From Promethearchaeia archaeon (GTDB lineage Archaea; Asgardarchaeota; Lokiarchaeia; Sigyniarchaeales; SOKP01), in NCBI GenBank assembly GCA_029856125.1, contig JAHQWJ010000062.1, positions 105,658 to 169,657 of the forward strand: DNA of 64,000 nt, read 5' to 3'. The notes beneath the pieces are model-generated. The model searched no databases and was not told the origin of the DNA. It saw only the letters and a list, made by a program, of their open reading frames with translations. The position numbers and the translations under genes were made by a program. Shown here piece after piece: positions 7,157 through 7,309 of this stretch; positions within the stretch are counted from its first letter, which is position 1; every line of letters starts with the position of its first letter.

Positions 7157-7309
7157 TTAATCTGTTGCTCCTAAGGCTTGTTTAACTTTTTCTAATTCTT
7201 CCATTCGTTTCTTTTTCTCTTCTTCGCGTTTTTTCATGTCTTCCTCGTCAACCTTTTGGAGAGCAACACCTTTTTTAATTTCGTCTTTCAATTCGTTTCC
7301 TAACGACAT
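7157..7309 (-). CDS. 50-aa peptide with WH2/beta-thymosin-like motif: MSLGNELKDEIKKGVALQKVDEEDMKKREEEKKKRMEELEKVKQALGATD
   Basis: Manual translation (below the track size cut-off). ATG to TAA, fills an otherwise empty gap. LxxEIKKGVxLQKV resembles the WH2 consensus LLxxIxxGxxLKKV. Confidence 0.72.
   Translation of the reverse strand: MSLGNELKDEIKKGVALQKVDEEDMKKREEEKKKRMEELEKVKQALGATD

Follow-up and report, generated by a model that had tools for sequence, protein, structure and literature searches.

A conserved 50-residue peptide of an Asgard archaeon and its probable family of WH2/beta-thymosin-like candidate actin partners

A 50-codon open reading frame in the Promethearchaeia archaeon assembly GCA_029856125.1 is a genuine gene, and the peptide that it encodes is under purifying selection. 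Judged by its sequence, this peptide represents one unit of a module family that is confined to one Asgard order. Because it is conserved, resembles the WH2 and beta-thymosin units of eukaryotic actin regulators, and has a ten-unit relative that co-purifies with Lokiactin, we propose that it probably belongs to an undescribed family of candidate archaeal actin partners. We regard it as likely that the family as a whole is actin-associated. Direct binding of Lokiactin by the 50-mer itself, in the manner of WH2 or thymosin, is the best single mechanism that we can suggest, at a confidence slightly short of even. The gene lies in a 64,000-nucleotide stretch of contig JAHQWJ010000062.1, referred to as the window, which has a G+C content of about 30-36%.

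Results

A small gene next to GNAT and pelota genes

The gene, its elements and its two neighbours are the following:

7157..7309, minus strand: stand-alone WH2/beta-thymosin-like gene with ATG start, TAA stop and 50 codons (ORF listing)
7274..7303, minus strand: predicted N-terminal amphipathic helix, residues 3-12 (AF2 model m3d2421c74b8d), with L7 and I11 conserved
7250..7291, minus strand: WH2-like motif LKDEIKKGVALQKV, residues 7-20, L-xxx-I-xx-G-V-x-L-x-K-V, from alignment to the WH2 repeats of N-WASP and P0193
7169..7246, minus strand: predicted long amphipathic helix, residues 22-47 (AF2 pLDDT above 90), with R28, K32, R35, E38, L39 and K41 invariant
7337..7397, minus strand: AT-rich upstream region with two putative TATA-like boxes, TTATAAATAAAT at 7386-7397 and CATAAAAGG at 7337-7345, as read by eye
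7116..7155, minus strand: oligo-T-rich tract 3' of the stop codon, putatively terminator-like for archaea, likewise read by eye
7419-7865, minus strand: RimI-like GNAT N-acetyltransferase gene (Pfam Acetyltransf_1), directly upstream of the 50-codon gene
5937-7073, minus strand: pelota gene, the downstream neighbour

The 50-aa protein begins with MSLGNELKDEIKKGVALQKVDEED and continues as an E/K-rich tail to its C-terminus. Given the two TATA-like boxes upstream and the oligo-T tract past the stop codon, the gene could be its own transcription unit. The GNAT gene lies 109 nt upstream of it and pelota 83 nt downstream, all three on the minus strand; the GNAT product scores 77.5 bits against the NCBIfam rimI model, under the cut-off of 86.4. 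As derived from gene positions at the loci, the order GNAT-peptide-pelota-radical SAM is conserved throughout the genus and in G030, a genome of another family. A GNAT gene directly upstream on the same strand is found in the window's genus, in G030 and in Ca. Lokiarchaeum ossiferum (e.g., L074 879-1364, plus strand; L027 1092-1598, plus strand), and pelota is not next to the peptide gene in Promethearchaeum syntrophicum MK-D1, L. ossiferum, G029 and G033. In eukaryotes, thymosin beta-4 and actin get acetylated, and the RimI-like neighbour may acetylate the 50-mer. The best actin of the window genome is a Lokiactin (G000:C63:2972-4084, minus strand; E about 1e-160 against eukaryotic actins), encoded on the same contig about 100 kb upstream of the window.

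The first-pass annotation of the window had proposed a clean small ORF missed by the gene track, and several measures bear this out. A search of 5.8 billion proteins returned 240 protein clusters of homologues of 48-52 aa at 70-96% identity. Matches were found in all 41 relatives searched at E<=10 and in 24/24 same-genus relatives at E<=5e-11, and the median dN/dS over 20 genus copies is 0.16, synonymous codon changes predominating relative to opportunity. Identity within the genus is 66-98% for the peptide and reaches down to 62% for the flanking pelota and 43% for the GNAT protein. A probable L. ossiferum orthologue was detected by mass spectrometry in 16 of 16 proteomes. The gene is unannotated in the track of the first pass only, as members of the same 90% cluster have been deposited as 'hypothetical protein'. 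The named sources of the clusters are hypothetical proteins of Promethearchaeota/Lokiarchaeota MAGs, with Hod- or Hermodarchaeota as the submitters' label in a few cases.

Almost all positions of the 50-mer are conserved in an alignment of 53 sequences, and I11, K13, G14, V15, L17, R28, K32, R35, E38, L39, K41 and G47 are invariant. With distant members included, L7 and I11 remain at least 90% conserved; the positions kept in the most distant relatives are those of the motif (L7, I11, G14, L17 and K19), above chance. The strict pattern [LIVM]xx[LIVM]xxG[LIVMAT]xLxK[VT] occurs once, against 1.95 occurrences expected from shuffles, in the 1.09 million residues of ORFs of at least 80 aa in the window's genome. 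The bare motif is thus at chance frequency in this genome, and therefore the motif alone proves nothing.

A WH2-like front followed by a conserved helix

An AF2 model built from the family alignment (mean pLDDT 83.5) predicts a helix at residues 3-12, a non-helical segment at 13-21 that includes GVALQKV, and a second helix at 22-47, in agreement with the anatomy of helix, LxKV linker and helix claimed in the first pass. The tail had been described there as single-alpha-helix-like; it is not a generic helix of this kind, being nearly invariant and carrying a hydrophobic stripe. The N-terminal helix is amphipathic, as is that of WH2, with the hydrophobic residues L7 and I11 at i and i+4. It leads into an LKKV/LKKT-type linker, I11-x-x-G14-V15-x-L17-Q-K19-V20, in which L17 and K19 are invariant and the window copy has one basic residue only. 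Two relatives (L026 and L029) read LKKV and the fused forms read LEKP, not LKKV; in more distant stand-alone members the sequence is ELKKAIEAGTSLKKVDQEE. Counted from I11, the conserved residues are L at -4, G at +3, V at +4, L at +6, K at +8 and V at +9, and the same spacing is found in N-WASP LLDQIRQGIQLKKV (as printed by HMMER).

The statistics of this WH2 likeness appear marginal but consistent across the comparisons made. A Pfam scan of the window peptide gave no WH2 or Thymosin match at E<=10, and nothing meaningful emerged from Pfam and NCBIfam scans of it. Pfam WH2 (PF02205) scored 14.3 bits for L026, 13.0 for L029, 13.3 for L022 and 11.3 for the L. ossiferum tandem protein described below, all under the cut-off of 23.1; this model was the first or second match, at subthreshold level, for L026, L029 and a tandem protein. 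When the family profile was searched against 177,635 PDB sequences, the first match was the tandem WH2 chain of N-WASP (3m3n_W), with an E-value of 0.0013 that is a sum over three repeats, the single-repeat values against N-WASP being just 14-110. The alignment to 3m3n_W falls exactly on the motif, and 2vcp_D was also among the PDB matches of the profile.

A profile search of 1.8 billion proteins gave 75 matches at E<=1e-3. Among them are P0191 and P0193, metagenome proteins that are probably eukaryotic, lie outside the family and pass the Pfam WH2 gathering score; they are the nearest non-Asgard matches to the family profile, at E-values of 3-6e-4 that are outscored in the same search by a repeat-driven false positive, P0182. 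Over 20 residues, the window peptide shares 60% identity with the WH2 repeats of P0193. The latter protein consists of a poly-proline tract, three WH2 repeats after it and a WASP-like C region. P0182, which is bacterial and has seven repeats (E 4e-5), was rejected as a relative, its score coming from summing over repeats.

The likeness to beta-thymosins is one of layout: a stand-alone peptide of the ~45-residue type, here of 50 aa, with an N-helix, a linker and a C-helix in the AF2 model. Pfam Thymosin (PF01290) had no match in the window peptide or in the 55-mers of MK-D1 and L. ossiferum. PDB searches with the family profile and with the MK-D1 55-mer returned no thymosin chain, the MK-D1 search giving nothing. 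The 55-mers of the cultured species look more thymosin beta-4-like (EIEEHDKSKMAKVS) than the window peptide does, and that of MK-D1 is 42% identical to whole human thymosin beta-4, with an E-value that applies to one comparison. Of the first-pass label 'WH2/thymosin-like', the WH2 resemblance is supported, on marginal statistics, at the level of the family profile; the window peptide itself passes neither the WH2 nor the Thymosin threshold of Pfam.

The family is confined to one Asgard order

We searched 301 genomes of the phylum, evenly drawn, with the family profile. Matches were obtained in 63 of the 68 genomes of the window's family and in all 7 of a second family, and in the rest of the phylum in 2/225 genomes, both matches being weak and inside long ORFs. 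Two more families of the same order also carry members. This order includes the two cultured species, L. ossiferum (G319) and P. syntrophicum MK-D1 (G038), whose 55-residue homologues are WP_371806818.1 and QEE14640.1/DSAG12_00453, respectively. The conservation across Asgard genomes for which the first pass had proposed a check is thus strong, yet limited to one order. Given this restriction, descent from an ancestor shared with eukaryotic WH2 is not supported; the family bears on convergent or lineage-specific invention and not on the ancestry of eukaryotic WH2, and its weight for eukaryogenesis is lowered.

Tandem arrays and fusions of the same unit

In the second family, to which both cultured species belong, the unit is repeated in a protein of 479-497 residues that contains about ten copies of LLxEIxxxxxLxKVDExxLKxYExxKxxR with a period of ~46 residues. 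At least 8 units of the L. ossiferum tandem protein can be aligned with the window peptide over its full length. The best match of the profile search, P0121 (E 1e-21), is full-length and 40% identical to the L. ossiferum tandem copy. The window genome has the stand-alone unit only, its 50-codon gene being the sole match there to the L. ossiferum tandem protein.

Fused forms were found by whole-genome profile searches and a search of representative proteins; a homologue search for longer proteins from the window peptide gave none, since E/K-rich words crowd out relatives. Within the window's family, 1-4 copies of the unit lie C-terminal to a profilin-like domain (L031, L032, P0146 and P0162). 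Units also follow Ras-like GTPases, in the arrangement GTPase-unit-RHH-unit, follow LRR arrays together with RHH or a zinc ribbon, and stand before or after RHH domains. The signalling-type fusions are L033 863-1936 (plus strand), L035 1286-2239 (minus strand), L030 661-1712 (plus strand), P0160, P0165 and P0189. The module together with RHH looks like a mobile cassette.

The profilin-like partner has a profilin fold by structural comparison. The AF2 model of L031 has a pLDDT of ~90 over residues 1-122, and its first Foldseek matches are Odin/Loki profilin-actin complexes (TM 0.74-0.88, E 2e-9), among them 5zza (5zza_P, TM 0.88), 5zzb and 5yee at TM 0.8-0.88, followed by dozens of eukaryotic profilins; Pfam Profilin (PF00235) matches are subthreshold, at 16.6-21.6 bits. 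Such fusions link the unit to actin, as does the co-immunoprecipitation considered below. The profilin-like family, with proteins of ~205 aa, combines an N-terminal profilin fold with a conserved C-terminal extension (G000:C84:132455-132973; L061 1411-2031, minus strand; and paralogues). It has 1-6 matches in nearly all genomes of the order, and its L. ossiferum member is, by position, the B35_Pro1 of the preprint considered below.

The tandem homologue co-purifies with Lokiactin

A Lokiactin co-immunoprecipitation from L. ossiferum has been reported in a preprint whose text covers only gelsolins, profilin and an Arf GTPase (10.1101/2025.11.30.690169). In its Supplementary Table 2, GNAMCCOK_04085 (56.41 kDa, 44 peptides, 70.5% coverage) is listed with a log2(actin/IgG) of 4.53 and an adjusted p of 0.0021. 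For comparison, the value is 4.44 for the bait Lokiactin, 3.97 for 2DGel1 and 2.1-2.6 for four other gelsolins, so that the enrichment of GNAMCCOK_04085 exceeds that of all five gelsolins. We identify this protein with the 488-residue ten-unit array encoded at G319 4,726,360-4,727,826, because mass and gene offset agree. The masses of the table are monoisotopic (42.747 kDa is calculated for Lokiactin with its 377 residues, against 42.75 in the table), and the array computes to 56.41 kDa. By ORF count, the array precedes the two-domain gelsolin at 4.784 Mb by exactly 51 genes; this gelsolin (322 aa, 36.60 kDa) is GNAMCCOK_04136 (2DGel1; table mass 36.6 kDa). The link of the tandem homologue to the Lokiactin co-immunoprecipitation, drawn here from the supplement of the preprint, is new. 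GNAMCCOK_04085 was present in 16/16 proteomes with a mean log2 of 19.2.

The stand-alone homologue of L. ossiferum is probably GNAMCCOK_02436: its mass of 8.24 kDa corresponds to a 69-codon call from an upstream start, its coverage of 43.5% equals 30/69, and the crude gene offset is 155-161 against 153 expected. In the Lokiactin co-immunoprecipitation this protein was not significantly enriched (log2 0.57, adjusted p 0.105). The samples had been cross-linked with 0.25% formaldehyde and lysed in a buffer with 10 mM MgCl2 and 150 mM NaCl (10.1101/2025.11.30.690169). Owing to the cross-linking, the experiment reports proximity, not direct contact, and the association of the tandem protein with Lokiactin may be indirect. 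Further proteins of higher enrichment are absent from the discussion in the preprint, namely GNAMCCOK_00333 (37.5 kDa, log2 9.2), 02751 (67 kDa, 7.7) and 04250 (20.6 kDa, 5.1); for the last (20.61 kDa), four ORFs of matching mass lie in the region. GNAMCCOK_03900 (6.54 kDa) was considered as a relative of the module and set aside, as it is probably an unrelated 57-aa zinc-ribbon protein.

Two nearby genes proposed as an actin-control neighbourhood

The first pass had also suggested that the peptide gene forms an actin-control neighbourhood with two genes of the window:

3576-4019, minus strand: poly-proline protein of 147 aa with a helical N-domain, a Pro/Gly-rich tract and the invariant C-terminal motif SLRGAIMGELKQLFSKR
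3591..3641, minus strand: this C-terminal motif, invariant across the order
4150-4782, minus strand: conserved coiled-coil protein of 210 aa

Homologues of the poly-proline protein were found in 39/41 relatives searched, its C-terminus follows the invariant pattern SLRGAIMxELKxLFxKR, and its Pro/Gly tract is conspicuous in DNA of 30% G+C. The C-terminal motif bears a suggestive resemblance to the opening helix of the long-form unit (SLRxxIMxELKxxI), which would relate this protein to the peptide, and also resembles the R-x-A-L-L-x-x-I-R-x helix that follows poly-proline in the WASP family. On these features, the protein may recruit profilin or actin. Its L. ossiferum orthologue (16.13 kDa) is not among the ~65 most enriched rows of the co-immunoprecipitation table. 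The coiled-coil protein has no Pfam or NCBIfam match; homologues with 29-33% identity are present in 4/4 other-family genomes checked.

In the three other-family genomes in which both could be placed (G030, MK-D1 and L. ossiferum), the poly-proline gene lies 78-240 kb from the peptide gene. The coiled-coil homologue is next to the poly-proline homologue in G030 only and 200-390 kb away in the 3 other genomes. Because both genes are scattered in this way, the neighbourhood idea is not supported by deep synteny: what remains of it is a conserved poly-proline protein with a suggestive motif, set against the distances to the peptide gene and the separation of the coiled-coil gene in 3/4 genomes.

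Discussion

Relation to known actin-binding modules

Like the WH2 domains of N-WASP, WAVE, WIP, MIM, Spire, Cordon-bleu and the bacterial VopL/VopF, the Asgard unit has a short amphipathic helix with L-x-K-V/T six residues on and a glycine three residues past the key isoleucine. Both occur singly, in tandem, beside poly-proline and on varied modular proteins, and profile matches run in both directions, at marginal scores. In contrast to WH2, the Asgard unit stays under the Pfam threshold, has one basic residue in LQKV and reads LEKP in fused forms, and invariably continues into a conserved helix of 26 residues, DEExxKxREEEKKKRxEELxKV, with no counterpart in WH2 domains. It is also limited to one archaeal order, with actin binding as a candidate function. 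With the beta-thymosins (thymosin beta-4, ciboulot, tetrathymosin and actobindin), the family shares stand-alone peptides of ~45-55 residues with an N-helix, an LKKT-type linker and a C-helix, as well as tandem-repeat versions; unlike them, it has a longer and differently conserved C-helix, ten units instead of two to four, no Pfam Thymosin match and no phyletic continuity with eukaryotic thymosins.

Related elements are known from other actin regulators. WH2-like linkers of Asgard gelsolins (LRRV, LKHV and LVDV/LKDV in Thor, Heim and Loki 2DGels) are bound to actin in crystals (PMC7444086, PMC9433394) and likewise provide an archaeal LxxV motif that contacts actin, but these are four residues between gelsolin domains and not independent modules, without an amphipathic helix unit or a conserved tail of their own. 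The profilin of trypanosomatids has a WH2-like insertion built in (PMC10907219), thus placing both elements on one chain as in L031, L032, P0146 and P0162; there the motif is inserted in the profilin fold, whereas the Asgard fusions carry 1-4 whole units after the profilin domain. Arcadin-2 of Crenarchaeota, summarised in PMC12050087 as a small protein that depolymerises crenactin filaments, is similar by description, being a small archaeal protein that acts on archaeal actin-like filaments, but its target is crenactin and its phylum a different one. A literature search returned no description of a stand-alone, tandem or fused WH2/thymosin-like Asgard family.

Possible mode of action and alternatives

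The first pass had read the 50-mer as a candidate peptide that sequesters actin monomers. WH2 domains occupy the actin cleft that separates subdomains 1 and 3. The 50-mer unit would bind Lokiactin directly in WH2/beta-thymosin fashion, with the extended G-V-x-L-x-K-V segment climbing the actin face and the long conserved C-terminal helix touching more actin surface, as does the C-helix of thymosin beta-4. A lone unit might then buffer or hand over actin monomers, an array of ten such units might act as a nucleator or filament binder, and the unit on profilin, GTPase, LRR and RHH proteins might serve as an actin tether. A broader and more tentative proposal, possible although on balance doubtful, is that the WH2/beta-thymosin-like unit constitutes a third class of actin regulator beside profilins and gelsolins in Loki-type Asgards. 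It would act as a free 'archaeal thymosin' of 50-55 residues, as an array of ten units with a nucleating or decorating role on Lokiactin filaments, and as an actin tether on profilin, small-GTPase, LRR and DNA-binding RHH proteins.

Two other readings of the unit were considered. The peptide might be an adaptor whose hub is not actin but, for example, one of the profilin-like paralogues or of the Ras-like GTPase, LRR and RHH proteins; the tandem protein would then reach Lokiactin only by way of profilin or gelsolin complexes. RHH, LRR and Ras-like GTPase domains are the commonest fusion partners, which fits a general adaptor equally well; where it is fused to profilin, the unit might act as a tethered profilin ligand, and both the cross-linking and the lack of significant enrichment of GNAMCCOK_02436 agree with an indirect association. 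However, the tandem protein is enriched like the bait and above all five gelsolins, conservation falls on the positions of an actin-binding motif, and no profilin, GTPase or LRR gene adjoins the stand-alone gene. We consider an adaptor role unlikely, while giving it some weight. The unit might instead bind the side of the Lokiactin filament, one per subunit and nebulin-like, mainly through its long helix, so that the WH2-like front would be incidental and the 50-mer would decorate filaments instead of sequestering monomers. This is an improbable reading to our minds, although it would account for ten-unit arrays with a ~46-residue period, for a long helix (R28, K32, R35, E38, L39, K41) that is the most invariant part of the unit and, we infer, for recovery from a buffer whose salt favours filamentous actin. 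Against it, L7, I11, G14, L17 and K19 are likewise kept in distant members, the fusions to profilin, which binds monomers, speak for G-actin, and Pfam scans gave no similarity to nebulin or tropomyosin families.

The setting of the gene raises the further alternative of a role in translation or N-terminal processing, as a substrate or partner of the RimI-like GNAT or as a ribosome/pelota factor, the actin-like motif being coincidental. The gene order from GNAT to radical SAM is kept in the genus and in G030, and the adjacency of GNAT and peptide extends to L. ossiferum. A pelota or ribosome role is nevertheless unlikely because the adjacency to pelota has been lost in several lineages (MK-D1, L. 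ossiferum, G029 and G033). The peptide has an acidic-to-neutral pI of 5.5, unlike that of small ribosomal proteins, and neither the profilin fusions nor the Lokiactin co-immunoprecipitation would be explained; we consider this alternative as a whole very improbable. Of these readings, direct WH2/thymosin-like binding of Lokiactin is the one that we rate highest.

Implications

According to the preprint, these cells seem to control Lokiactin mainly through profilins and gelsolins (10.1101/2025.11.30.690169). The tandem form of the present family is among the strongest matches in the published Lokiactin co-immunoprecipitation, yet it is absent from the discussion there. Homologues of the window peptide in the two cultured species, L. 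ossiferum and P. syntrophicum, make the reading directly testable. If the unit does constitute a third class of regulator, its RHH forms would couple the state of actin to transcription, an arrangement known from MRTF with its RPEL motifs. With a modular WH2/thymosin-like unit that also stands free, archaea would gain monomer buffering, nucleation or tethering, activities that to our knowledge have so far been described only in eukaryotes and in the bacterial effectors that mimic them.
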